A stretch of DNA of 26,437 bases from a virus (Duplodnaviria; Caudoviricetes): IMG/VR virus record IMGVR_UViG_3300038675_000440, positions 1-26,437 of that record; one strand, 5' to 3'. The translations under genes were made by a program, and so were the position numbers. Every line of letters starts with the position of its first letter. Within the stretch, counting starts at the first letter, position 1. Below, piece by piece: positions 1,352-26,437 of the stretch. Below the pieces are notes generated by a model. The model was not told the DNA's origin and did no database searches. It saw nothing but the letters and a program-made list of their open reading frames with translations.

Positions 1352-1935
1352 TTTACAGCCTCCAAAATAGTTTTTATTTGTGCCACACCCTGCTGTGCCC
1401 CAGCTTTAATTTTTGCAATTTTAACCTCATCACGCATTACCCGCTCAATTAAAAGCGGCTTTGGGAAGTCTGGCGCATATAGTACGTAGTCAACCCACTC
1501 GCGCTCTGTTACCCACATTTGCATTTGCATTTACCAAACGTATTTAGTGTCTATTTTTTTGGTGTGCATGGCCTTTAAAAACACAATATCGCTTGGGCAT
1601 TTAAACTCAACCAAGCCGTCATCACCCACTAGGCCGTCAGGGCTAGCACCGGTGTATTGGTCAAGCTCAACAAACCCAACTTCCTTTACCACATTGCCGG
1701 TTTCAAGTTCATAGCTATTGCGTGCTAGCGGTTCTAATTCATTGCCGCGTTTAATGTGCTCGTTTTCAAACTGCTCTGGCAACTTGTGCGTTAGCAGCTC
1801 TGCAACTTTTTCGTATACCAGTGTTTCCAAACCTTTGCCATTACTTGCTATGGCCTGGGCACTACTTGCTGTTAATTTACCAAGGCGTAGCTTTAGCCAC
1901 TCGTCAGTACCTTGTTTTATGTTATGCAGCTTCAT
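1348..1935 (-). pseudogene. YqaJ/lambda-exonuclease family recombinase exonuclease interrupted by an in-frame TAA
   Basis: QGTDEWLKLRLGKLTAS, RGNELEP, GASPDGLV, VEFKCP motifs; ORFs 1531..1953 and 1348..1530 are in the same frame, separated by a TAA (1531-1533) where the W-Q-MQ.QM motif needs Gln. Confidence 0.85.
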
Positions 1936-2512
1936 TGGTTTCCTCCAGCTCATTTTTGCGCTTGGTGTAGTAGGCTACTAGCGGTTTTTGGTATTCGGCA
2001 CCAAGCTCCGTTTTAAGCTCAGCGCACACGGCCACTAATTCCTCGTGTGTTTTTGCCCCATCAATTTTGCCCTGGCTAATTGGGTCTAGCTCTGTGGTGT
2101 CAGCTGGTTCCTGTGCATCAACGCTGTCGCCCTCGCTAATTTCGTACGCCTCCATATAAACATAACGGCGCATGTAGGTGTGCTTACCACCCAAGTTTTG
2201 TATTGCCTGGCCACCCTGTATGCTAGCTTCTGCCGTTGGCGTTTTCCAAACCATACAATCATCGGGGTTGTCGCTATTCATTACTTTTAAAATAGCAACT
2301 TCCTGCTCACCCTTTTTGGGGTAAATGTTAAAAAACGTGGTAATGCCGTTTTCAAAATTAAGCCTATTAACCGCCGGCATAAAGTCGCCTAGCTGGTAAT
2401 ATTTGGCTTTGGTGTGTTTATTTTCGCCCGTTTTTTTAAGCTCAAGTGTGCCTAATTCGTTGCGCACCTTGCTCATGCGTTGGTGTATGTTAAGTGTTTT
2501 TTCTGCTGGCAT
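1922..2512 (-). CDS. erf: ERF-family single-strand annealing protein
   Basis: KKTGENKHTKAKYYQLGD and Q.LGG.HTYMRRY motifs; adjacent to the exonuclease. Confidence 0.85.
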   Translation of the reverse strand: MPAEKTLNIHQRMSKVRNELGTLELKKTGENKHTKAKYYQLGDFMPAVNRLNFENGITTFFNIYPKKGEQEVAILKVMNSDNPDDCMVWKTPTAEASIQGGQAIQNLGGKHTYMRRYVYMEAYEISEGDSVDAQEPADTTELDPISQGKIDGAKTHEELVAVCAELKTELGAEYQKPLVAYYTKRKNELEETNEAA

Positions 2513-2980: not shown

Positions 2981-3189
2981 AGTGCCTCCGCTACAACTTT
3001 TGTATCTACCTTGTCAGCCTCAGCCCAGCCAACTATGCTGCCAAAATCGCCCTGGCCGTCAATATAGCCGTTAATAATTACCTTTACTGCATTAGCTGGC
3101 TCAATGCCGCGCTTGGTAAGGTCTTTAAATTGCATTTGTGCAAATAGGTCTGTTTCAAAATTGTTTATAGCTTTTTTTGTTGCTTGCAT
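2974..3189 (-). CDS. hypothetical protein (71 aa), probably leaderless
   Basis: ORF track; ATG lies 6 nt downstream of a TATACT -10 box. Confidence 0.7.
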   Translation of the reverse strand: MQATKKAINNFETDLFAQMQFKDLTKRGIEPANAVKVIINGYIDGQGDFGSIVGWAEADKVDTKVVAEALC

Positions 3190-3195
3190 AATACG

Positions 3196-6810: not shown

Positions 6811-7782
6811 TTAATTTTGCCATAGTTTTTCGTTTGCTAAAAATTGCTGCCTTGTTTTTTTAGTAAAACGCAACTTAGCAAAACCCTTGCGCCTCCTAAA
6901 TACTAGCATACTTTCACCGTTATTAACGGTTTTAACCTCACCCTCAGTCACTTCCCAAAACATTGGGTCTATGCTTTTAAAATCTTTAACAATGTCAAAA
7001 AACCATACCTCTGGCGCCTCAACGCTATATAAAGCCATGTAGCCACTATTAGTCGGCACAATTGCTGTTTTTGTACTACCGTTAATTTGGAAGGTTGTGC
7101 AGTTAAAATGTATGTCGCCGCTACTGGTTTCAACTACAATGCCACCGCTATTTAGTGCCTGTATTAAAACCAATGGGGCATTAGCTGTACCAACAATAAA
7201 ATCCGTTTCCCCGCTGTTAATGCCAGCAACACCCCTAAAACTGCCACTCTCACTACTGCTGCCAAGTTCAAAAAAACCAAGGCCAGCGCCACCAATATAA
7301 CCGCCAACGTTTGGCTGTAGGGTAAAAGTTATATCACCCCCGTCAAATAAAAAAAAGTTTTCATCACTTAGAGAAACCATGTCGTCACCGCTGCTAGTAC
7401 GTATTCTGTCACCAGTAATTGTTATACCAGTAATACTACCCGCAGTAAGCGTACCAAAGTTGGCACTTATTGCGCTTAGCTCATCTACATCCAACTTATC
7501 GGCCGTAATAGTATCCGCACCTATGCGGTCAGCGCTAATAGTGCCAGCCGTTACTTTTACAGCACTTAGGCTATCAACTTTTGCATTAGTAACAGCGCCG
7601 GTAGCAATCTTACCGGTGGTTATTGCCCCATCCTCAATTTTTGCGGTAGTAATTATGGCCGTACCAATACGCGCCGTATCAATTGGTGCGCCCTGTACCA
7701 TGGCTTGTAACGTACTAACGCGTTGCTCAATTGTGGCAATTTGGTCAAAAAGCTGCTGGCTTGCTAGACTATTTAAACTCAT
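6811..7782 (-). CDS. tail fibre/receptor-binding protein, paralog 3
   Basis: IT.AKI-type repeats, variable beta-rich middle, conserved KTAIVPT..GY.ALY..EAPEVWF.D C-terminus; ATG 7782 overlaps the upstream stop. Confidence 0.8.
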   Translation of the reverse strand: MSLNSLASQQLFDQIATIEQRVSTLQAMVQGAPIDTARIGTAIITTAKIEDGAITTGKIATGAVTNAKVDSLSAVKVTAGTISADRIGADTITADKLDVDELSAISANFGTLTAGSITGITITGDRIRTSSGDDMVSLSDENFFLFDGGDITFTLQPNVGGYIGGAGLGFFELGSSSESGSFRGVAGINSGETDFIVGTANAPLVLIQALNSGGIVVETSSGDIHFNCTTFQINGSTKTAIVPTNSGYMALYSVEAPEVWFFDIVKDFKSIDPMFWEVTEGEVKTVNNGESMLVFRRRKGFAKLRFTKKTRQQFLANEKLWQN

Positions 7783-8744
7783 ACCGCCCCCCAAAACTTG
7801 TTGTTTTTATCAAACTGCACCGCTGTCTTTTTTTCAAACCTAGTATTTAAAAATCCCTTACGCTTGCGGAAAACTAATAATTCCCCCTGGTCTGTTGTCA
7901 GTGCGTTTATTTCACCCTCGGTTACCTCACTAAAAATTGGGTCAAACTTGTCTTTAATAAAATCAAAAAACCAAACCTCTGGTGCTTCTAAACAATATAA
8001 GGCGCGGTAGCCTTGTTTTGTTGGCACAATAGCTGTTTTAACACTGCCGTTTATTCTAACGTTGCCACTTGGCCAGATGTTAATTTGGTCATCAGCTGCA
8101 ACAAGTTGCATATCACCACCACTTTGGCCACTAATAAAATCAAAATCTATACTGCCCCCAACTTGGAAAGTTGTCTGTGTGCTACTAGCTTTAAAAAAAC
8201 TTGCCCAAAAAGTGCCAGTTGAAAACTTATACCAATGTGTGCCGATGTCATATATTTTTAAGCCATCTGGGTCAAAGCGGTATTTTTCAGTACCACCGCT
8301 GTTATAAAAGCGCATAGCATTTGGGCTAGCCGTCATTTCAATACGCTCACCACTGCTTGCCGTACGCACCGTACCACCAGTTATGGTAACACCGGTAATG
8401 CTACCGCCAGTAATAGTACCAACATCAGCACTAATTGCGCTTAATGTACTAATATTTAATTTATCGGCGGTAATTATGCCAGCACCAATACGCGCCGCAT
8501 TTAATGTGCCCGCAGTAAAGTCGCCCGCATCAATGCTAGTTATTTTTGCGTTTGTAATTGCAAGGTCAGCAAACTTTGCATTGGTAATACTAAGGTCGTC
8601 AATTTGTGCATCGGTAATACTTGCGTCCTTTATGCGTATTACACTAACGGGGTTGCCAGCTAAAAATAGCTCAACTTCCTCAAGCTGCTCTTGTATGCGG
8701 CCAAACCTACGCTCAATAGTAGCTTGTTCAATTACATTAAGCAT
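7779..8744 (-). CDS. tail fibre/receptor-binding protein, paralog 2
   Basis: Same architecture; true start MLNVIEQA at 8744 by homology to MSLNIIEQA of paralog 1. Confidence 0.8.
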   Translation of the reverse strand: MLNVIEQATIERRFGRIQEQLEEVELFLAGNPVSVIRIKDASITDAQIDDLSITNAKFADLAITNAKITSIDAGDFTAGTLNAARIGAGIITADKLNISTLSAISADVGTITGGSITGVTITGGTVRTASSGERIEMTASPNAMRFYNSGGTEKYRFDPDGLKIYDIGTHWYKFSTGTFWASFFKASSTQTTFQVGGSIDFDFISGQSGGDMQLVAADDQINIWPSGNVRINGSVKTAIVPTKQGYRALYCLEAPEVWFFDFIKDKFDPIFSEVTEGEINALTTDQGELLVFRKRKGFLNTRFEKKTAVQFDKNNKFWGAV

Positions 8745-9687
8745 ACAGCTTGCTATTCCTTTCAAACTCCACACTCGTTTTTTTTGTAAAACGTGTTTTG
8801 GCATAGCCCTTGCGTTTTGCAAACACTAGTTTTTTACCATTTATACATTTAAAAACGTGTTGCTTGCCCTCAGTTACTTCACTAAACATGGGGTCAGGCT
8901 TGCTTTTATAAAAATCCATAAACCAAACCCCTGGTGCTTCTGCACAATACAGCGCCCTGTAACCATTTTCGGTTAGCACAATTGCGGTTTTTGTACCAGT
9001 ATCAAGGCGTACCGTTGGTGCAATTAAGTTAATGGTGTCATCAGCAACAAAATAAATATCCCCACTGCCGTCGTGGTTTATGTAAAGTAAGCCATTATTA
9101 ACCGTCTGTATTAGGTTAAAAGAACTGCTGCTAGCATCCCATTGGGTCATTAAATTACTGCTGGCGTCATACAACCTAATTGCTGCTGTACCATAAAAAA
9201 CAACGTTGCCAGCACCCATGGCCACACGCTTGTTACCACTATCGTAAACATAAAATCGCTCTGGACTACCACTTATTTCAACGCGGCTACTAGAGTCAAC
9301 CGTGCGCACGGTGCCACCAGTAATTGTTACGCCGGTTACTGTGCCAGCATTAACGCTACCAATATCAGAAGTTATGGCACTTAATGTACTAACGTTTAAT
9401 TTTGTAGCGGTAATACTACTAGCCGCAATCCTGTCAGCGCTTAACGTACCGGTGGTTATTTTACTAGCGTCAAGGTCATTTATTTTCGCGTTTTCTATGG
9501 TTGCGTTAGCAATTTTTGCAGTAGTAACACTAAGGTCGGCTATTTTTGCACTGGTTATAGTAGCGTCCCCAATGCGTGCCGTGCTAATTGGCACACCAGA
9601 AAAAAAGGCCTCTGCGGCCTGTAGTCTTTCACGTAGGCCGCCAATGCGCCTATTTAACCTAGCCTGCTCAATTATATTTAAACTCAT
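8737..9687 (-). CDS. tail fibre/receptor-binding protein, paralog 1
   Basis: Same architecture; ATGA overlap with the hub gene. Confidence 0.8.
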   Translation of the reverse strand: MSLNIIEQARLNRRIGGLRERLQAAEAFFSGVPISTARIGDATITSAKIADLSVTTAKIANATIENAKINDLDASKITTGTLSADRIAASSITATKLNVSTLSAITSDIGSVNAGTVTGVTITGGTVRTVDSSSRVEISGSPERFYVYDSGNKRVAMGAGNVVFYGTAAIRLYDASSNLMTQWDASSSSFNLIQTVNNGLLYINHDGSGDIYFVADDTINLIAPTVRLDTGTKTAIVLTENGYRALYCAEAPGVWFMDFYKSKPDPMFSEVTEGKQHVFKCINGKKLVFAKRKGYAKTRFTKKTSVEFERNSKLYA

Positions 9688-18988: not shown

Positions 18989-19009
18989 TTAAAGCTCCTT
19001 ACTAACAAT

Positions 19010-19018
19010 AGCATATCA
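19010..19018 (-). promoter_or_regulatory. possible extended -10 promoter TGATATGCT restarting transcription after the capsid terminator
   Basis: Resembles TGATATAGT at 6441 and 25771; upstream of AAGGAG SD. Confidence 0.45.
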
Positions 19019-19028
19019 TTTTTTATAC

Positions 19029-19060
19029 AAAAAAGCCCCCTGCCGTTAAGCAAGGGGCTT
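19029..19060 (-). terminator. intrinsic terminator after the capsid gene
   Basis: Minus strand AAGCCCCTTGC-TTAACG-GCAGGGGGCTT-TTTT. Confidence 0.9.
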
Positions 19061-19078
19061 CCAGTTTCAACTTACGGT

Positions 19079-21046
19079 TTATGAGCCGTTGGTTGTTACC
19101 AGCACACTGTAGGCGTTAGCGTGTTTGTGAACGGCGTTCATCCGTACACGGGCACGTACTGCCTGAATGTCCTGGGTAATTAGGTTAAGGTCGTCCCCGT
19201 CATCTGGGTCACCTACCACGCCAGCATCAAAAAACTTGAGCTGCATTGGTACCCTAATACCAAGGTCAGTGTTTTGCAGGTCACCAAACACTACAAACCC
19301 TGCGCCGGCCTCGTCTTCGCTGGTGTCTGGCAAGATTTCGGTTAAGCTGTAAGGCTTACCCCAAATTGTTGCCTCGGCACCACCGTCAACACCTGGTCGC
19401 CAAATGTAGCGGCCATCAAGGTCTTTCAAGCGTTGGATAACGCCCAAAATGCTTGGGTTGAGGTAGAACCTACCACGCTCACGGCTTGGCGTTGGCACAG
19501 CGTACATCATTTCGTTGAGGTCATCAGCGGTAATGTCTAGGAAGCTGTCGCCGCCAACTTCAATTTCCGCGGTACCACTGGTATTTAAAATACCTGTAGT
19601 AGCATCGGTAAAGACAAGTTGGTCTTCTTTTTTAGCGGCTGCGCGTGCAAACCTACCAGTCAGGTCGTTCCACAGGTCAATTGCGCTGTCTTCTAACAGT
19701 TCGTCAGTGACGGGCACAATTGCTGCAAACTTACGGAAGGTAAGTTCGTATGGCAGGTAACTAACGGCTTGGCTTGGTTTAACGATGCCTTCGGCAGTTT
19801 CCACAAACTCAACATCGCTAGTGCCACCTTTAATACCACGCATGGTTGGGCGGGTTGTTCTGCGCACACGTGCGTACCTTGCGGCCACACCGTACTCTTC
19901 TTCCAACCGGCTAACCTCAGCAATAAACTCCTCGGGCGGCAATATTTGGCTGTCGTCGCTGGTGTTCATGGCCGATTTTTCCATGTACTCGCTAAAGTCA
20001 CCGTTAACCAGGCCTTTGTAGTAAAGTTTTAGCTTTTCCTCTTTACTAAGGTCGCCGTTTGTGCTTTTACCAGCGCCAGTGTTAATGTCCTTGCGGGCAA
20101 CAACCTTAGTCATGCTTTTGGCAATAGCGTTAACGCTCTTGGTCAAACTTTTTACAGTTTTCTCAAGTTCGGCGGTGCTGTCGTCTGCATCATCTGCATC
20201 GTCAGCATCTTCCTCGTCAGCGTCTTTGGCTTCCAAGTGGCCGGCTTCAACACAAAGGGCAACTTGCCCCTCGGTCAACTCCGCTTGTTTTTCTACTAAA
20301 AAGGCTTTCTCTTCATCGGTTAAAGCCTCACCGCTGGCGATTTTAGCCAGAATTTCTTTGAGCTTGAGCATTTTAGCTCCTTTCTTAGGCTGTTCGCCTG
20401 TACTACTATTATCTGCTGGTAATAAGCCCTTTGCCTTAGCAAAACTTAATAACAGCGCTTCATCGTTTGCACCAATTAACACTGGTGAAAACTCAATCAT
20501 TTCAGCTTTTGTGTATTCGTTACCGTCTACGTCCTTGGGGATAAACCCAATACTAAACGCAAACTGGTACATTTTCCGGTACGCTTGGTCTAATATTTTG
20601 GGCAGCTGGTAGCCCTCAATATCAGTTGCAAACTCAAAGTCTGCAATTAGCTTACCGTCTTTTGTTTTGGTTAGTTTGTGCGTGCGGCCAACACTTACCG
20701 CGTCATATTGGTGAAACGGTGCCATGATTGGGTTTGTCATGTACTTTTTCAAGTCCATACCCTGCATGTTAATTTTTTCGCCGTGCCTATCTTCCGTTTC
20801 GCTGCTAATGACTGCGCGTAGTAAACCGTTGCTAAGTTCCTTAACTTTTTCAACGCTAAACTCCATGCGCACAACTTTACCAATGTTTTCTTTTAATGTG
20901 CCCTTTACGTCTTTTTTGGCAAACGCCGCAACGTGTACTTCGTTGCCGTCTTTGTCGTAGCCCTTTTCTTTCAAAAATGCTATTTCAGCGTCAGTTAAAC
21001 TTTCGCCTTTTTCGATTTTTGCCAAAATGTTTTTTAATTTAAGCAT
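19079..21046 (-). CDS. HK97-type prohead protease fused in frame to major capsid protein
   Basis: EDRHGEKI, FSIGF, EFSPVLIGAN protease motifs; K.AAIVPVTDELLEDS, LKDLDGRYIW, VVFGDL capsid motifs; start 21046 follows AAGGA SD; internal capsid start at 20371. Confidence 0.92.
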   Translation of the reverse strand: MLKLKNILAKIEKGESLTDAEIAFLKEKGYDKDGNEVHVAAFAKKDVKGTLKENIGKVVRMEFSVEKVKELSNGLLRAVISSETEDRHGEKINMQGMDLKKYMTNPIMAPFHQYDAVSVGRTHKLTKTKDGKLIADFEFATDIEGYQLPKILDQAYRKMYQFAFSIGFIPKDVDGNEYTKAEMIEFSPVLIGANDEALLLSFAKAKGLLPADNSSTGEQPKKGAKMLKLKEILAKIASGEALTDEEKAFLVEKQAELTEGQVALCVEAGHLEAKDADEEDADDADDADDSTAELEKTVKSLTKSVNAIAKSMTKVVARKDINTGAGKSTNGDLSKEEKLKLYYKGLVNGDFSEYMEKSAMNTSDDSQILPPEEFIAEVSRLEEEYGVAARYARVRRTTRPTMRGIKGGTSDVEFVETAEGIVKPSQAVSYLPYELTFRKFAAIVPVTDELLEDSAIDLWNDLTGRFARAAAKKEDQLVFTDATTGILNTSGTAEIEVGGDSFLDITADDLNEMMYAVPTPSRERGRFYLNPSILGVIQRLKDLDGRYIWRPGVDGGAEATIWGKPYSLTEILPDTSEDEAGAGFVVFGDLQNTDLGIRVPMQLKFFDAGVVGDPDDGDDLNLITQDIQAVRARVRMNAVHKHANAYSVLVTTNGS

Positions 21047-21059
21047 GTGTTCCTTATAC

Positions 21060-21114
21060 AAAAAACCCGCCCTACAGGTGTGGCCTCTTTGGGCTCTACT
21101 TGAGGTAGCGGGCT
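21060..21114 (-). terminator. large-loop terminator/attenuator in the capsid leader containing AGAG(G/C)CC motifs
   Basis: Minus strand AGCCCGCTAC...GTAGGGCGGGTT followed by a T6 run immediately before the SD. Confidence 0.7.
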
Positions 21115-21145
21115 CTAATGGCCTCTATTTATTCAATTAGTGTTA

Positions 21146-21175
21146 ATAATAGCCTGTTTTTAGTTACATTGTCAA
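21146..21175 (-). promoter_or_regulatory. sigma70-type promoter TTGACA-N18-TATTAT for the capsid leader
   Basis: Consensus -35 at 21170-21175, -10 at 21146-21151. Confidence 0.7.
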
Positions 21176-21324
21176 GTCGGGCTAAAAAACTCCATTATGC
21201 GCAATAACCGCTGTGTGACAATTTTAAACTTTTGTATGTTGCCACACTTACATTTAATTTCACCTTGCCCATAGCTAAGGCGCATTAACTTTGCGTTGCA
21301 TTTTTTACATTTAACCCATTGCAT
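21172..21324 (-). CDS. Mu Com-like zinc-finger protein (50 aa), not in ORF track
   Basis: Hand translation MQWVKCKKCNAKLMRLSYGQGEIKCKCGNIQKFKIVTQRLLRIMEFFSPT; CxxC-N.KL...EIKC.C matches the Com-family pattern; start overlaps the portal end. Confidence 0.8.
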   Translation of the reverse strand: MQWVKCKKCNAKLMRLSYGQGEIKCKCGNIQKFKIVTQRLLRIMEFFSPT

Positions 21325-23314
21325 TGTATGCCCTAAATTGTTGGATATTAACTGGTATGGTCGTACAGCGGCAGTTTGGGTGTAGTGGTGGGTGGTCTAC
21401 GGTTTCGTAGTTAGCTACATACTGGCCGCCGTCATCACCGTCTACGGTTTGCCCCTGGTATACAAATGGGGTATCAAGGCCAACAATCTTACCGTTTAAA
21501 CTTTGGCAAAACTCACACGCCCCTGGGTTGGTAAACCACTCGTGGCCGGTAACTGTTGGTATTTGCCGCATAGCCTCAACGCCAGCCTCGTTGCTAGCAA
21601 AAATTGTTTCAGTACGGGCAATACGCTCGCTGCGCATGGTGGTGGCTGTGTCGTAAATATCAGTAATGCGCTTGCGTAGCTTGGCCACACTTTCGCCGGC
21701 GCTAATGCCCTCGGCTATAGTAGCTTCAATAAAACTTTGTGTTTCCTTGTCAACCTCAGAGCTAAACCGGTCAATGCGGTCATTTATACGCCGCTGTAAG
21801 TCTGGTGTAATTTCCAACTCGCCCTGCACGTCCTCAAAATCAAACGTCTGTTTGGCCTGGTCAACCATTAACTCAACGGTAAGCGGGTACAAAACACGCT
21901 GCCAAACAAGGCTGCTTTCCACGCGGTCAAACAACCACTCGCTTAGCCCCTTTTTTGTTTGCTGTAAAATCTCTGCCTGCTGTTGTTTGAAAACTTTATT
22001 AACCGCTTTTTGGTATGGTTTTTCCCAAGCCTCTTGGCCACTAAATAGGTTTTTCCAAAATATTTCGGCGCGCTTTTGCCTAGTTACTTTTTTTTTTACA
22101 CCTTTGCCGGTGTCATCTTTGGGTGCTTGTTCTTTTTCCATGGGTAGCAAATTAAGTGGCTGGTAAATTACGTCACCGCCTGGCACAGGGTCAAGACCAC
22201 GCTCCTTGCGTATGTCGTTTGTGGTAAGCCATTTGTTATGGCCTTTTTCCCACTCGTCCAATTTATCCTCAATAGTTTCGGGGTTTGGGTCAATGTAATA
22301 CAGCCTAAACTTATTGCCATAGTTTGGCACAACTTCGCTGTAATTAACCTGGTCAATTAAACGCTCAACACCTGGCTTAATGTTATTTTCCATCCAAACC
22401 GCACGGGCTTCTTTTGCGTTGGCGCGGTTAACATCGTCAGTAATACCCATAATGGTTTTACTAACCCTGAACATAAACATAATGTCGTCACGCGTAATGT
22501 CTTTAATGTTTTTAAGCTCAACCCCGTCAAGGTCAATGCCAAGTTTTTGGAAGTCAATGCCATCAAAACCTTTAATGAGTAACGTTTTGCCAGCGTTTTT
22601 GGTACCGCTGTACTCTTGCCTAAACCGCTTTTTAAGTTGGTCAAATTGGCTATCGTCCATGTTGCCGCGCAGGTTAATAATGCCGCTTGGCCGGCCACTG
22701 TTATAAATGCTGTTTTTAGTCCAGTCACTACTAAACTCCTCGGTTTGTAAATACACCATGGCCGCCTCAACAATACCTAAGCCACGGTAGGGGTTCATTG
22801 GGTTTGGCAATTTGTGGTGGATAATTTCGTCCGGCTCAAAGGTTGTTTTGCTGCCATCGTCTTTGGTCATTTTGTAGGCTTTAATGCTACCCACCTTGTC
22901 TTTAGCAACTTCAACCTCCATTAAGTCCGGCCTAATTAAATAAAACTCTTTTACTTTTTTACCGCTTTTAACTTTGTACCAAAAACTTTCACCGGCCAAG
23001 TTCATATAAACGGCGTGCAACTCCCTAAACTGAAAACCGCTATGTATGCTGTTTGGGTGGTCTAAAACATCAATTAGCTCGTGGCTTTCCTGGTCTTGCC
23101 ACTGCTTACCCACTTTACGCTGCATTACCAAGTCAACTTTGGCAAAGTCTTGGGCATAGGCGCTAACAATACTATGCACGTACCGGTTAAAACGTTGTAG
23201 TTGTTGGCGCTTGCCCCAGCTGCCAGGTATTGCCCAACTTATTACCGACATGCCGCCGCCAAAAAAGCTCTTGGTTTTAGTAAATGCGTTTGTTAGGGAT
23301 TTAAAAATGTTCAT
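21311..23314 (-). CDS. HK97-type portal protein fused to a MuF/SPP1 gp7-like head morphogenesis domain
   Basis: IRPD, EIIHHKLPNPMNPYRGLG, NSGRPSGII, NAGK, LTTNDIR..RGLDPVPGGD (portal); RSERIARTET, C.FC..LNG, PPLHPNCRC (MuF). Confidence 0.92.
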   Translation of the reverse strand: MNIFKSLTNAFTKTKSFFGGGMSVISWAIPGSWGKRQQLQRFNRYVHSIVSAYAQDFAKVDLVMQRKVGKQWQDQESHELIDVLDHPNSIHSGFQFRELHAVYMNLAGESFWYKVKSGKKVKEFYLIRPDLMEVEVAKDKVGSIKAYKMTKDDGSKTTFEPDEIIHHKLPNPMNPYRGLGIVEAAMVYLQTEEFSSDWTKNSIYNSGRPSGIINLRGNMDDSQFDQLKKRFRQEYSGTKNAGKTLLIKGFDGIDFQKLGIDLDGVELKNIKDITRDDIMFMFRVSKTIMGITDDVNRANAKEARAVWMENNIKPGVERLIDQVNYSEVVPNYGNKFRLYYIDPNPETIEDKLDEWEKGHNKWLTTNDIRKERGLDPVPGGDVIYQPLNLLPMEKEQAPKDDTGKGVKKKVTRQKRAEIFWKNLFSGQEAWEKPYQKAVNKVFKQQQAEILQQTKKGLSEWLFDRVESSLVWQRVLYPLTVELMVDQAKQTFDFEDVQGELEITPDLQRRINDRIDRFSSEVDKETQSFIEATIAEGISAGESVAKLRKRITDIYDTATTMRSERIARTETIFASNEAGVEAMRQIPTVTGHEWFTNPGACEFCQSLNGKIVGLDTPFVYQGQTVDGDDGGQYVANYETVDHPPLHPNCRCTTIPVNIQQFRAYNAMG

Positions 23315-24831
23315 ATAAAAGCGTAGTCCTCGTCAGTCACTAATTTGCCTCTAATAAGTTCAAAGTACTCCCGCATCATTAGTGTATCAGAAAAGTCGGG
23401 CGAACGCCCGCCGAGTATGTTTTTTTGCTCCTCTTTACTGTTAATTTGTTTGCGCTCTACATCAGTGCTTGTTTTCTTACGCACACAGCGCAGGTCTTCT
23501 TTTATTAGCTTTACAATATCATAATTTTGCCCGCTTATGGTAACCTCACTGGCTTCGTTGCCGTCCACAATAAAGGTTTCATTAACTGCAACTTCCGCAC
23601 GGTTAACCCGCTCAGCAAACCGGTAGTAGCACTGCGTTTTTAAGTTTTTGTAGTTTTCTTTTATTTGTGTGTTGGGGTCTTCAATAACCCGCGCCCCACC
23701 ACTAAAACCAATGTAGCCGCCCTCATCAACAACGCCACCGCCAACGCCGTCTTGGTCAACCAATATTTGGCTCTTTGGCACTTTGTTGCGTGTGCGCTCG
23801 GCCTCAATTGCTTTAACTAATGTGCTGGTGCTGCTTTTGGTAAAAATAATTGTTTTAATAACACGCCAGCCAACCCAGGTTTTAATTACAGCTAAGTTGC
23901 TACCAAACCGTGCCGCGTCAACGGTAATGTAGCGGTCAGTGCTGTTTTCAACTGCGTTTGTAAATAAGTCATTAACCCGCAAAAAGTTAAACAGCGCCAT
24001 GCCGTCTTGCCTAATTTTCCAATTACCCTTTAAAAGCCTAAGTTGCTCCTCCTCTGGTAAGGCCAAAAGGTTGGCCAGGTAACCAGGGTCGTTTGCTAAC
24101 AGTTCTTTGTTTTCGTAAACGTCACCAGGTATAAAAGTAACACTTTTAACTAAATCCTCTGGTGCTTGTCCGTGTAGTGTGTCGTCATTGAAAACATGTG
24201 GGCAGCGGTCAATTACTTCCTGTACGCTATCGCCCCAAACAAAAACACCCTTGTCGGTAGTAAAGTAACGTATCTTGCCGGCACGCTCTGGTATTGGGTA
24301 GCCTGTGTCCTGGTTAATCCACCAACTTATAAAATCAGCCACCCAACTATCTGGGTCAGGGTTACACGTGGCACGTATGCACGGCTTAACACCAGCAACG
24401 GGGCTACGGTTCCGGCCTACTAAATATAAAAACTGCGTCTTGGTAAACTGCGTTAACTCGTCAAACCCTATGTATGGGTACTGGCCGCCCTGGTGGTCGT
24501 ACTTGTTTTTTTCGTACTCCATGTGGCTAAACCTAACACGGCTGCCCTCGTCAAAATCCCACTGCAATAAAAACTCGCGGGCATTGCCGCCTAACGGCTG
24601 GTATAGCTGTATGCTGGTATCCCACAAACTACCCTCGTTACGTATTTGTGGTGTAGTACGCCTAAAAATAACAGCGCCAAAACCTTTAATGTGAAAATAC
24701 CTAGCGGGGTCAAGTAGTAGTGCGTAGCTTTTACCGCCACCAGCTGCACCACCCCCAACAACAATGTCTGCTGGTGAGGATAAAAAAGCCTGCTGGAAGC
24801 CAGCTTGTGGCTTAATTATGCGGTCAGCCAT
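23311..24831 (-). CDS. terL: terminase large subunit
   Basis: KPQAGFQ, GGAAGGGKS Walker A, IGFDELTQF Walker B, ATCNP, VDAARFG and RSPDFSD nuclease motifs. Confidence 0.95.
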   Translation of the reverse strand: MADRIIKPQAGFQQAFLSSPADIVVGGGAAGGGKSYALLLDPARYFHIKGFGAVIFRRTTPQIRNEGSLWDTSIQLYQPLGGNAREFLLQWDFDEGSRVRFSHMEYEKNKYDHQGGQYPYIGFDELTQFTKTQFLYLVGRNRSPVAGVKPCIRATCNPDPDSWVADFISWWINQDTGYPIPERAGKIRYFTTDKGVFVWGDSVQEVIDRCPHVFNDDTLHGQAPEDLVKSVTFIPGDVYENKELLANDPGYLANLLALPEEEQLRLLKGNWKIRQDGMALFNFLRVNDLFTNAVENSTDRYITVDAARFGSNLAVIKTWVGWRVIKTIIFTKSSTSTLVKAIEAERTRNKVPKSQILVDQDGVGGGVVDEGGYIGFSGGARVIEDPNTQIKENYKNLKTQCYYRFAERVNRAEVAVNETFIVDGNEASEVTISGQNYDIVKLIKEDLRCVRKKTSTDVERKQINSKEEQKNILGGRSPDFSDTLMMREYFELIRGKLVTDEDYAFI

Positions 24832-25213
24832 TTGCGTTTTTCTCGCCTATTTCCAAATGTTTTTGGCAAAGCCATACGTTAGCCCTACGCTCGCCGCTTT
24901 CAAAATCGTACTCAACCCACACACCTTGCGCAACGGCTTCGTTTCTACAAATTGGTAATTCACATTGTTTGCCAGTAGCTTTGTTAACCACCTCGTTGCT
25001 TTCAACCATGGTGTTTTGCGCCATAAAATCCTGCATAGCTTTATTGCCCTGTATTTTTTCTTTAGCCACTGCAAACTCCTTTTCTGTCATTGGTTCTGGA
25101 AATTGGATAATAGCCAACACCTCGTTGGTCTTACCGTTAATTACTTCAACTGGCAAATCGCCTAATATTTGTGAGAGGTTTTTACGTAAATCGCGTACTG
25201 TAACTTTTTGCAT
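24824..25213 (-). CDS. Phd/YefM-like DNA-binding domain protein with C-terminal Zn-binding motif (129 aa)
   Basis: MQKVTVRDLRKNLSQIL...PVEVI resembles the Phd/YefM N-terminus; C-terminal CELPIC...WLCQKH; start set at 25213 from promoter geometry. Confidence 0.7.
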   Translation of the reverse strand: MQKVTVRDLRKNLSQILGDLPVEVINGKTNEVLAIIQFPEPMTEKEFAVAKEKIQGNKAMQDFMAQNTMVESNEVVNKATGKQCELPICRNEAVAQGVWVEYDFESGERRANVWLCQKHLEIGEKNANG

Positions 25214-25267
25214 TGTGTACACATTATAGCTTTGTTGTGTACACATTACAATAACTACGTGTACGCA
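25214..25267 (-). promoter_or_regulatory. promoter TTGTAA-N17-TATAAT with three GTGTAC operators at 22-bp spacing
   Basis: TGTGTACACA 25214-25223 and 25236-25245, CGTGTACGCA 25258-25267; -10 at 25223-25228, -35 at 25246-25251. Confidence 0.85.
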
Positions 25268-25726
25268 TTACTCTTTTTCGCGGCCATTGCTTGGTAATTG
25301 GATAACAACGCTTTCACGCATTGGCTTGTTGTCGCTGGTGTGGTCAACCTTGTCGCGCCAGTTAAAGCGGTTTTTCATATTAAATACCCAGACGGTGGTA
25401 TTCCCCTTGGTGTAGTCAATAACTGTTTCCTTGCCTGTTACTGGGTCTGTCTTTTTATCAACCAGGCCAAGTAACATATTACGGCCAACGCGCTCGTAAA
25501 ATATCTGGCACGCCTCAAAACCTTGCTTCTTGGCTGCAATCCACTCTGGGTGCTTGGGTGTACCGTCATCGTTTTTAGCATTCTCCCAAACGTAAAGAGT
25601 TGCCCTGGAAACGCCAATAGTAACGCCAAACGTTTCATAACTCAGCCCCTCGGCCATGTGATTAATCAACTGCTCGCAATATTCGGGCTTGTATTCTGTC
25701 GGTCTGCCGACTGGATTTTCGCTCAT
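25268..25726 (-). CDS. terS: terminase small subunit
   Basis: GRPTEYKPEYCE, HTH GVSRATLYVW, FNMKNRFNWRDK; upstream of terL. Confidence 0.88.
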   Translation of the reverse strand: MSENPVGRPTEYKPEYCEQLINHMAEGLSYETFGVTIGVSRATLYVWENAKNDDGTPKHPEWIAAKKQGFEACQIFYERVGRNMLLGLVDKKTDPVTGKETVIDYTKGNTTVWVFNMKNRFNWRDKVDHTSDNKPMRESVVIQLPSNGREKE

Positions 25727-25770
25727 ATTTTTCCCAGACTTCTTTTTGGTATCTAAAAATTACTAACTAA

Positions 25771-25797
25771 ACTATATCACAACCGTTTGCAAACGCC
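25771..25797 (-). promoter_or_regulatory. extended -10 TGATATAGT with adjacent palindrome CGTTTGCAAACG upstream of terS
   Basis: Same 9-mer as 6441-6449; palindrome resembles the ACCGTTT-N2-AAACGGT operator. Confidence 0.55.
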
Positions 25798-25800
25798 AAT

Positions 25801-25905
25801 TTAATCTAAAAAACTACCAGAGTTAAGCCTATCTGTCAAAAACAAGTAAATAACGCCAACCGCAATTAAAACTGTAACTTGTAGTAACAACTTTATATAT
25901 GACAT
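25801..25905 (-). CDS. small single-TM protein (34 aa), not in ORF track
   Basis: MSYIKLLLQVTVLIAVGVIYLFLTDRLNSGSFLD; TAATG overlap with the upstream gene. Confidence 0.55.
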   Translation of the reverse strand: MSYIKLLLQVTVLIAVGVIYLFLTDRLNSGSFLD

Positions 25906-26381
25906 TAGTACAAATCCTCGCTAAATAATGTACCTGGTAAATATCCACCCCCGTTCATGCTTGGTATGCGTGCCTTATCCTGTATCTGGCGTGCTTCCTC
26001 GCGGGTGCAATATACATTAAAGCTGTCAATAAAGCCTTGGGCTGCGGGGTCGGTATTTGGTTCCAGGCCAGCGTTTTTAATTGTTTTAATACAATCTGCA
26101 TGCCTGTGCCCCCTAAATATTTGTCCGTTATTTGCTACCACTGCCGCGCAAATAATTTGGTTTACTGGTATGTGTAAATTACGACTGGCTAACTCAAAGT
26201 CCTCTGGGTATTTATCGTTTAAATAAGTCAGGGTTGCTTTTACAACGTAAAAAATACCGCTTAATTCTTTTGATACTAGGTTGGCAACGTACTCTTTACC
26301 GTTTGTTGCTATGCCTAAAACTGCATCACCGATTAGGTTTTTCTCTTTACCGTCACTGTCTTGGATTTTAACTGTTGGCAT
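25905..26381 (-). CDS. conserved phage hypothetical protein (158 aa)
   Basis: GAGGA SD; C-terminal ICAA...GHRH...QGF...REEA...LFSEDLY pattern of an uncharacterised phage family. Confidence 0.75.
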   Translation of the reverse strand: MPTVKIQDSDGKEKNLIGDAVLGIATNGKEYVANLVSKELSGIFYVVKATLTYLNDKYPEDFELASRNLHIPVNQIICAAVVANNGQIFRGHRHADCIKTIKNAGLEPNTDPAAQGFIDSFNVYCTREEARQIQDKARIPSMNGGGYLPGTLFSEDLY

Positions 26382-26437
26382 TTTCCTCCTTATGTTAGCA
26401 AAACCCTGCCCGTGTGTGCCATTCGTTTTTATAGGTT

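Follow-up and report, generated by a model that had tools for sequence, protein, structure and literature searches.

How late genes are delayed in tailed phages that have no Q protein, sigma factor or polymerase of their own is open for most uncultured groups. In phage lambda, which relies on Q, a constitutive-type promoter is followed by a terminator that gates the late genes, a layout resembling the one described here for a virus of the Caudoviricetes (IMG/VR record IMGVR_UViG_3300038675_000440, positions 1 to 26,437; this whole stretch of 26,437 nucleotides (nt) is called the window below). On the minus strand of the window, a gene for a Com-like protein of 50 amino acids (aa) is followed by a leader in which a predicted promoter, four short motifs and a predicted terminator precede a fused protease-capsid gene. 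Lambda Q, however, is loaded onto RNA polymerase at a site in the DNA and has long-range effects, whereas the site predicted in the window is RNA and local to one terminator. Judging from the sequence, it is probable that the Com-like protein binds two CC-N3/4-GAG hairpins in the nascent leader, keeps the terminator from closing and thereby switches on the protease-capsid gene.

The closest described system is com-mom of phage Mu (PF10122, Zn_ribbon_Com; PHROG 13819 and 6417), in which, as in the window, a gene for a small four-cysteine zinc ribbon lies upstream of its target. SELEX, electrophoretic mobility shift assays and selective 2'-hydroxyl acylation analyzed by primer extension placed the binding site of a Com in a hairpin loop, CC(N)2-3GAG, closed by C-G, and gave the bipartite consensus GAG-NN-CC-N2-3-GAG-NN-CC (PMC6483171). 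The predicted target in the window is likewise a hairpin with a CC-Nn-GAG loop closed by C-G. It differs from that of Mu in that it overlaps a predicted terminator, whereas the Mu target is a translation-inhibition structure that hides the start site, and in that it comprises two hairpins with stems of 3 base pairs (bp; N1), one of which has an N4 loop. The target genes differ too, being a DNA-modification gene (mom) in Mu and a protease-capsid gene with its own predicted promoter in the window. A first-pass annotation of this DNA had proposed a Com-like switch unrelated to mom, and the absence of a link to mom is supported, as the downstream gene encodes the protease-capsid protein. No mom homolog was found among the window genes examined, and in its head genes the phage is HK97-like.

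Antitermination by RNA-binding proteins offers further likenesses. In the ANTAR system (EutV; PMC3369931), two small hairpins with conserved loops form an antiterminator that excludes an intrinsic terminator, as predicted here. On the other hand, the fold and the loop sequence are unrelated, the ANTAR signal is phosphorylation where here it would be the appearance of Com itself, and many of the phage elements described below have a single hairpin. By analogy, the best reading is that the window element works like ANTAR, that is, by Com-dependent antitermination of late genes. The HutP gene of Bacillus subtilis also lies directly upstream of the terminator it regulates, with two clusters of short purine motifs in the terminator region, but HutP is a histidine-activated hexamer that binds NAG triplets, in contrast to a 50-aa zinc ribbon and hairpin loops (PMC12591593). 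A 2025 review of RNA-binding antiterminators does not mention Com, zinc or phage. Genes of the PF10122 family, often unannotated, have been noted ahead of genes other than mom, namely Pseudomonas llpA bacteriocin and tailocin lysis genes; this 2018 review names no RNA site or mechanism for them and calls their general role unexplored (PMC6240691). Com sites in terminators were not found described in the open literature; subscription papers and the supplements of RNA-motif surveys lay outside this search and may hold the motif.

The Com-like gene and the capsid leader

The locus comprises the following features, in order of transcription:

21172..21324, minus strand: com-like open reading frame (ORF) for a four-cysteine zinc ribbon of 50 aa, from ORF reading and homology
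21146..21175, minus strand: predicted promoter of the sigma-70 type, TTGACA-18-TATTAT, with 11 of 12 consensus matches and with the com stop inside it
21110..21126, minus strand: predicted hairpin 1, formed by motifs 1 and 2, 3 bp, loop C-AUUA-GA, with complementary variable bases G/C
21082..21097, minus strand: predicted hairpin 2, formed by motifs 3 and 4, 3 bp, loop C-AAA-GA (exact CC-N3-GAG), with complementary variable bases C/G; part of the minimum-energy fold
21060..21116, minus strand: predicted intrinsic terminator with base AGAGCCCGC / GCGGGUUUU, a long structured loop and a U6 tail at 21065-21060 (-21.3 kcal/mol, z -2.34)
21051..21055, minus strand: Shine-Dalgarno (SD)-like AAGGA, outside the large hairpin and before the ATG at 21046
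19079..21046, minus strand: fused prohead protease and HK97-type major capsid protein, the proposed controlled gene (PF05065, E 4.2e-39; phrog_10, E 7.6e-43; phrog_80 protease, E 6e-6)

According to the ORF list, the com-like start overlaps the end of the portal gene by 14 nt, and its TGA stop lies inside the -35 word of the promoter (TTGACA, 21175-21170). These points, like the 50-aa ORF itself and the four AGAG(G/C)CC motifs (minus strand, 21120-21126, 21110-21116, 21091-21097 and 21082-21088), agreed base for base with the first-pass annotation. The encoded protein has the cysteine pattern CxxC...CxC. Its full-length homolog P0012 is 74% identical to it, and another relative, P0011 (48% identity over 42 aa), lies above the Pfam cut-off for PF10122 with 27.3 bits. 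A six-sequence profile drew 57 proteins, 52 of which were aligned (alignment A3). At E ≤ 0.001, PF10122 was matched by 35 and phrog_6417 by 45 of these 52 relatives, and residues C6, C9, C25 and C27, predicted to bind zinc, are conserved among them. In the Atlas ranking, rank 4 was reached with a score of 0.93, in a cluster with 73% PF10122. The predicted structure is a beta-ribbon of four strands with a C-terminal helix (predicted local distance difference test 84.9); searches of the PDB by sequence and by fold returned weak zinc-ribbon matches, none at E ≤ 0.001, and no ANTAR, CAT or HutP domain was detected with Pfam and NCBIfam. Judged by its relatives, the 50-aa protein is a divergent Com-like protein and not a member by cut-off. 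The Com-family membership suggested at first thus holds through the aligned relatives, without a direct Pfam match.

The TTGACA-18-TATTAT promoter is the top scorer of eight promoter-like sites in 19000-26437, a number no higher than in shuffles (mean 10.7). The motifs that follow it are four of the eight copies in the window. Four GAGNCC words within 60 nt were obtained in 0 of 1000 dinucleotide shuffles, both strands being read, and no second motif-pair element was found elsewhere in the window, nor was any curated RNA family of Rfam matched by it. No RNA holder is listed for the locus, a result that carries no information about its expression. The motifs had been described as GA..CC-like repeats bound by a Com-type protein. 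Their overlap with a predicted terminator ahead of the protease-capsid gene stands, but the sequence evidence favors a different reading, two hairpins of 3 bp whose loops have the form CC-N3/4-GAG, so that the unit is one hairpin per motif pair. The N3 loop of hairpin 2 matches the SELEX loop form exactly.

Folding predictions set the first of these hairpins against the terminator. Specifically, the 3' strand of hairpin 1 doubles as the 5' arm of the terminator base, and hairpin 1 excludes this base, whereas hairpin 2 sits in the terminator loop and belongs to the best fold. The U6 tail, the SD and the base of the hairpin are present as described in the first pass; the stem drawn there needs a 2-nt bulge and lies 1.1 kcal/mol above the optimal leader fold, which has the same base. 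From the predicted start to the U-tract, the unconstrained (OFF) fold has -21.4 kcal/mol. With hairpin 1 held the value is -15.6, and motif 3 then pairs with bases before the U-tract to give a back-up stem; with both hairpins held and the footprint covered it is -11.7, with a residual local hairpin of -5.7. In the folds, neither the SD nor the ATG is part of the large hairpin, and both are only weakly paired. Ribosome-coupled attenuation by translation of com was also considered and rejected: 46 nt separate the com stop from motif 1, and in the relative G001 the distance is 6 kb.

Related phages and other viral contigs

Searches by portal protein found relatives of the window in two viral and three metagenome loci, corresponding to one near-identical phage type, of which L001 and L002 were examined. 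No close relatives were found by capsid or com in viral contigs, or by portal in genomes. Two related phages retain the arrangement. In G001, whose portal is 45% identical to that of the window, com again overlaps the portal end, and about 6 kb of other genes separate it from a TG-TATAAT word, two hairpins and the protease-capsid gene. The hairpin variable bases are G/C and U/A, in the nested layout seen in the window. G061 (55% identity for portal, 50% for com and 48% for capsid) has the order portal, one gene, com, TTGACA promoter, two hairpins, terminator, tail-tube and capsid, the tail-tube gene having moved ahead of the capsid gene. Its hairpin variable bases are A/U and A/U, and a compact terminator begins in the fourth motif. 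Promoter-like words stand at the matching place in both phages. Since in G001 and G061 com stays near the portal while the element accompanies the virion genes of high copy number, Com would act in trans.

Constrained folds of the window, G001 and G061 predict that the binding site and the terminator are mutually exclusive; in G061, the energy goes from -25.1 to -8.1 kcal/mol with the hairpins held and the terminator is gone. These folds bear on a reading in which Com lowers expression, either because hairpin 2, bound in the terminator loop, makes that structure more stable, or by a two-phased response, and so limits capsid. Hairpin 2 is indeed compatible with the terminator fold, and part of it, in the window and G001. 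Nevertheless, this reading has a slim chance, given that hairpin 1 excludes the terminator base, that held hairpins abolish the terminator of G061, and that most of the scan matches listed below have just one hairpin, the 3' strand of which serves as the arm of the terminator.

Motif conservation and covarying stems, which the first pass had named as checks, were both found in the related phages. All 12 motif pairs of the window and of loci L041, L043, L044, L045 and L048 are complementary at their variable bases (one by G-U). Strict four-motif patterns returned mostly tandem or coding repeats (32/35; 2/6 for viral and 13/13 for genome matches), which were set aside or used as controls. Among cultured phages, the best Com-like match, Anaerostipes phage AC844P2 (L234, OP172636.1), lacks a GAGNCC pair. 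At 3003-3190 this phage has an unannotated Com-like ORF. The leader behind it contains a CC-N3-GAG word as well as a segment that could pair with the ribosome site of the large gene that comes next. The locus may represent a version that acts on translation, as in Mu, and could be convenient for tests.

For a wider scan of viral contigs, two motifs and a U-tract were fixed and the variable bases left free. This pattern gave at least 120 loci (about 121 by estimate), of which 94 were distinct; when the first motif was scrambled as a control, 52 loci were obtained, of which 43 were distinct and 37 were left after removal of six that contained a real motif. Watson-Crick variable bases were present in 52 of the 94 listed elements, with four pair types (permutation mean 22.7, maximum 39 in 20,000), versus 7/37 controls. 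In 76/94 listed elements and 19/37 controls, motif 2 forms the base of a hairpin that precedes the U-tract, and the hairpins before the U-tract have a median of -22.8 kcal/mol versus -13.4 in controls, the scan itself having required the U-tract. U-G variable pairs were seen in a further 5 of the 76 terminator-linked listed elements, and 16 of these 76 have the form GAG-GC-CC, which fits the SELEX N2 consensus. Loops of N4 occur in 19 of the 52 paired elements among the matches listed.

The same pairing bears on whether the Com-like protein could be a DNA-binding regulator, with the motifs as DNA operator repeats downstream of a promoter. The repeats do begin shortly after the predicted start site, and relative P0032 is named 'Com family DNA-binding transcriptional regulator' in its source. 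We regard this as highly improbable, because some of the variable bases are matched as U-G pairs and their complementarity extends into the 3' arm of the terminator, orientation and position at the terminator base are fixed, and the published Com binds RNA.

A small CxxC..CxxC ORF ends within 140 nt upstream of 28/73 listed elements versus 1/37 controls (P 2e-5). PF10122 was detected in 19 of 50 element records and in none of 24 tandem-repeat records, and Com profile matches were found in 20/50 element records versus 1/37 controls; the sole control record with such a match, L186, carries a real-type element. No Rfam family lies over the element in 40 loci. This gene linkage, together with conservation and covariation in relatives and the four copies within 60 nt that no shuffle reproduced, leaves barely any room for a fixed leaky attenuator with incidental motifs or an incidental small ORF, a notion that the small ORF's lack of a direct Pfam match and the 18 occurrences of GAGNCC on the coding strand would otherwise favor.

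Of the 76 listed elements, 65 have an identified downstream ORF. Head or packaging genes account for 24 of these ORFs (protease, capsid or scaffold in 14 cases, terminase in 6 and portal in 4), and the others comprise 2 connector, 3 HNH, 3 lysis, 1 membrane and 6 unknown families, with 26 lacking a match. Almost all of the named downstream genes are thus virion or lysis genes. An SD-like word follows the hairpin, rather than lying within it, in 55/76 listed elements. In the main rival explanation, these hairpins are again the Com target, but the effect is on translation or stability of the capsid mRNA, like that of Mu Com on mom, and the U-tract hairpin is an inefficient terminator. Translation activation is the only demonstrated Com activity (PMC6483171), the window hairpin has a long loop and G-U pairs, and in G001 a weak U-tract is combined with a purine run within the stem, 15 nt before the ATG. 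Yet the SD and ATG of the window lie free of the large hairpin, the SD-like word comes after the U-tract in most listed elements, and the hairpins before the U-tract are strong (though the scan selected for that tract), which together make translational control unlikely.

Upstream of the element-linked zinc-ribbon genes (22 loci examined, 17 with an upstream ORF), 2 of the 17 ORFs are portal-like, 2 are terminase and 10 are without a match. These counts concern the first-pass suggestion that capsid expression is licensed only after the portal has been made. As a strict assembly-order checkpoint, com would be translationally coupled to the portal, and capsid would come after portal and in proportion to it; this would be an addition to Com binding and not an alternative to it. 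The 14-nt overlap of com and portal in the window, the overlap in G001 and the position one gene behind the portal in G061 agree with it. Against it stand the rarity of portal-like genes upstream of other element-linked zinc ribbons and the elements that precede terminase and portal genes themselves, and a plain delay from the last place in an earlier operon accounts for the layout. We consider the strict version rather unlikely; the checkpoint fits the gene order of the window phage group and is not supported for the family at large.

Locus L168 has an abiF RNA match (Rfam RF03085, 44.9 bits, above cut-off) at 228-264, between the zinc-ribbon gene and the element. L069, L112, L119, L162 and L163 form an element subfamily, AGAGACCC-N2-GAGGCCC, with a long conserved terminator stem and with the usual variable bases unpaired.

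Proposed action of Com on the capsid leader

In the proposed mechanism, a host-type promoter would fire into a leader of about 93 nt. Without Com, the base AGAGCCCGC/GCGGGUUUU would form and transcription would stop at U6. Com, supplied from the terminase-portal transcript, would capture the newly made hairpin 1 at a point when about 40 nt are still to be transcribed before the 3' arm of the terminator exists. If hairpin 1 alone were held, motif 3 could replace motif 2 and rebuild a stem adjacent to the U-tract. Because this back-up stem forms in the folds, both hairpins would need to be occupied, which would make the switch steeper and more delayed. Terminated leaders could, judging from the same folds, titrate Com. 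Acting in trans, Com would then serve as a timer for high-copy virion proteins, with capsid synthesis awaiting its build-up. The first-pass annotation had Com melting the finished terminator. An energy gap of about 6-10 kcal/mol and the spacing of 40 nt from hairpin 1 to the 3' arm favor capture before folding instead, so that Com likely blocks formation of the terminator.

Several results weigh against this reading. The Com-like protein of the window has no PF10122 match at E ≤ 1 and does not reach the Pfam gathering cut-off, and its PHROG gpCom match is weak (E 0.017). The stability of the whole leader is ordinary compared with shuffles (z 0.07), the hairpin part alone being unusual (z -2.34). 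A consensus terminator scan omits the long-loop hairpin and lists a weak local one at 21079-21065; as a terminator the hairpin is atypical, with its long loop and with 4 of 9 basal pairs involving the U-tract, and the stem of G001 is trailed by just UUUUG, a four-U tract. Hairpin 1 has an N4 loop and both stems are N1, where the SELEX consensus has an N2-3 loop and an N2 stem. Upstream promoter-like sites are only weakly enriched (12/75, against a mean of 6.8 and a maximum of 13 in shuffles). The three-way-paired elements supplied the 50 records examined for Com (50/51), and of the records at least 90% complete just 3/12 (PF10122) or 2/12 (profile) have a Com match. Several of these near-complete records carry divergent zinc ribbons beside the element; some elements may lack a partner, or else many of the partners have diverged too far. 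Finally, the scan matches are related to an unmeasured degree and the statistics are indicative: because of this shared kinship, the P values overstate independence.

More tentatively, and with somewhat less than even confidence, the patterns suggest that Com zinc ribbons could be widespread, overlooked RNA-binding antiterminators for phage late genes, with Mu mom control as a special case. In the phage group of the window, the two hairpins and the back-up stem would then make a two-site AND gate, and terminated leaders, with hairpin 2 still on display, would sequester Com and so define a capsid threshold. If the mechanism holds, no smaller late switch would be known than this pair of a 50-aa protein and a 15-nt hairpin, the often unannotated Com gene family would gain a function, zinc ribbons would join the RNA-binding antiterminators, and synthetic biology would have a compact protein-RNA part.

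Neighboring genes and other observations in the window

Two further features flank the locus:

21311..23314, minus strand: portal protein fused to a MuF/minor-head domain (PF04860, E 1.8e-49; PF04233, E 4.1e-14)
19029..19062, minus strand: strong predicted terminator behind the capsid gene (-22.9 kcal/mol, z -4.6)

Because this strong predicted terminator closes the capsid gene, the gene appears to be a unit of its own, governed by its leader. Both terminators flanking it (19029-19062 and, with the tail at 21060-21054, minus strand) carry the identical 12-nt tail TTTTTTGTATAA. A promoter-like TG-N-TATTGT after the second of them could start the neck-tail genes. The N-terminal MLKLKNILAKI of the protease-capsid protein (19079-21046, minus strand) recurs nearly exactly, as MLKLKEILAKI, around residue 225 at the protease/capsid junction, possibly as an internal start or a duplicated scaffold helix.

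Throughout the window (1-26437), the coding (minus) strand has observed/expected ratios of 0.17 for TC and 0.68 for GA, and GATC is absent. The two related phages have no such depletion (TC 1.04 and 0.94; GATC 21 and 55). The lack of TC points to strong selection in the recent past, exerted by a host system with recognition sites containing TC/GA. The AGAG motifs persist despite this depletion.

At 6811-9687 (minus strand), three consecutive similar tail proteins (327, 347 and 316 aa) share 'ITxAKI' repeats and a C-terminal domain, and apparently arose by tandem triplication. At 1531-1953 (minus strand), an ORF resembling a recombination nuclease, a predicted function, ends at 1531, and the ORF from 1530 looks like its continuation in another frame.

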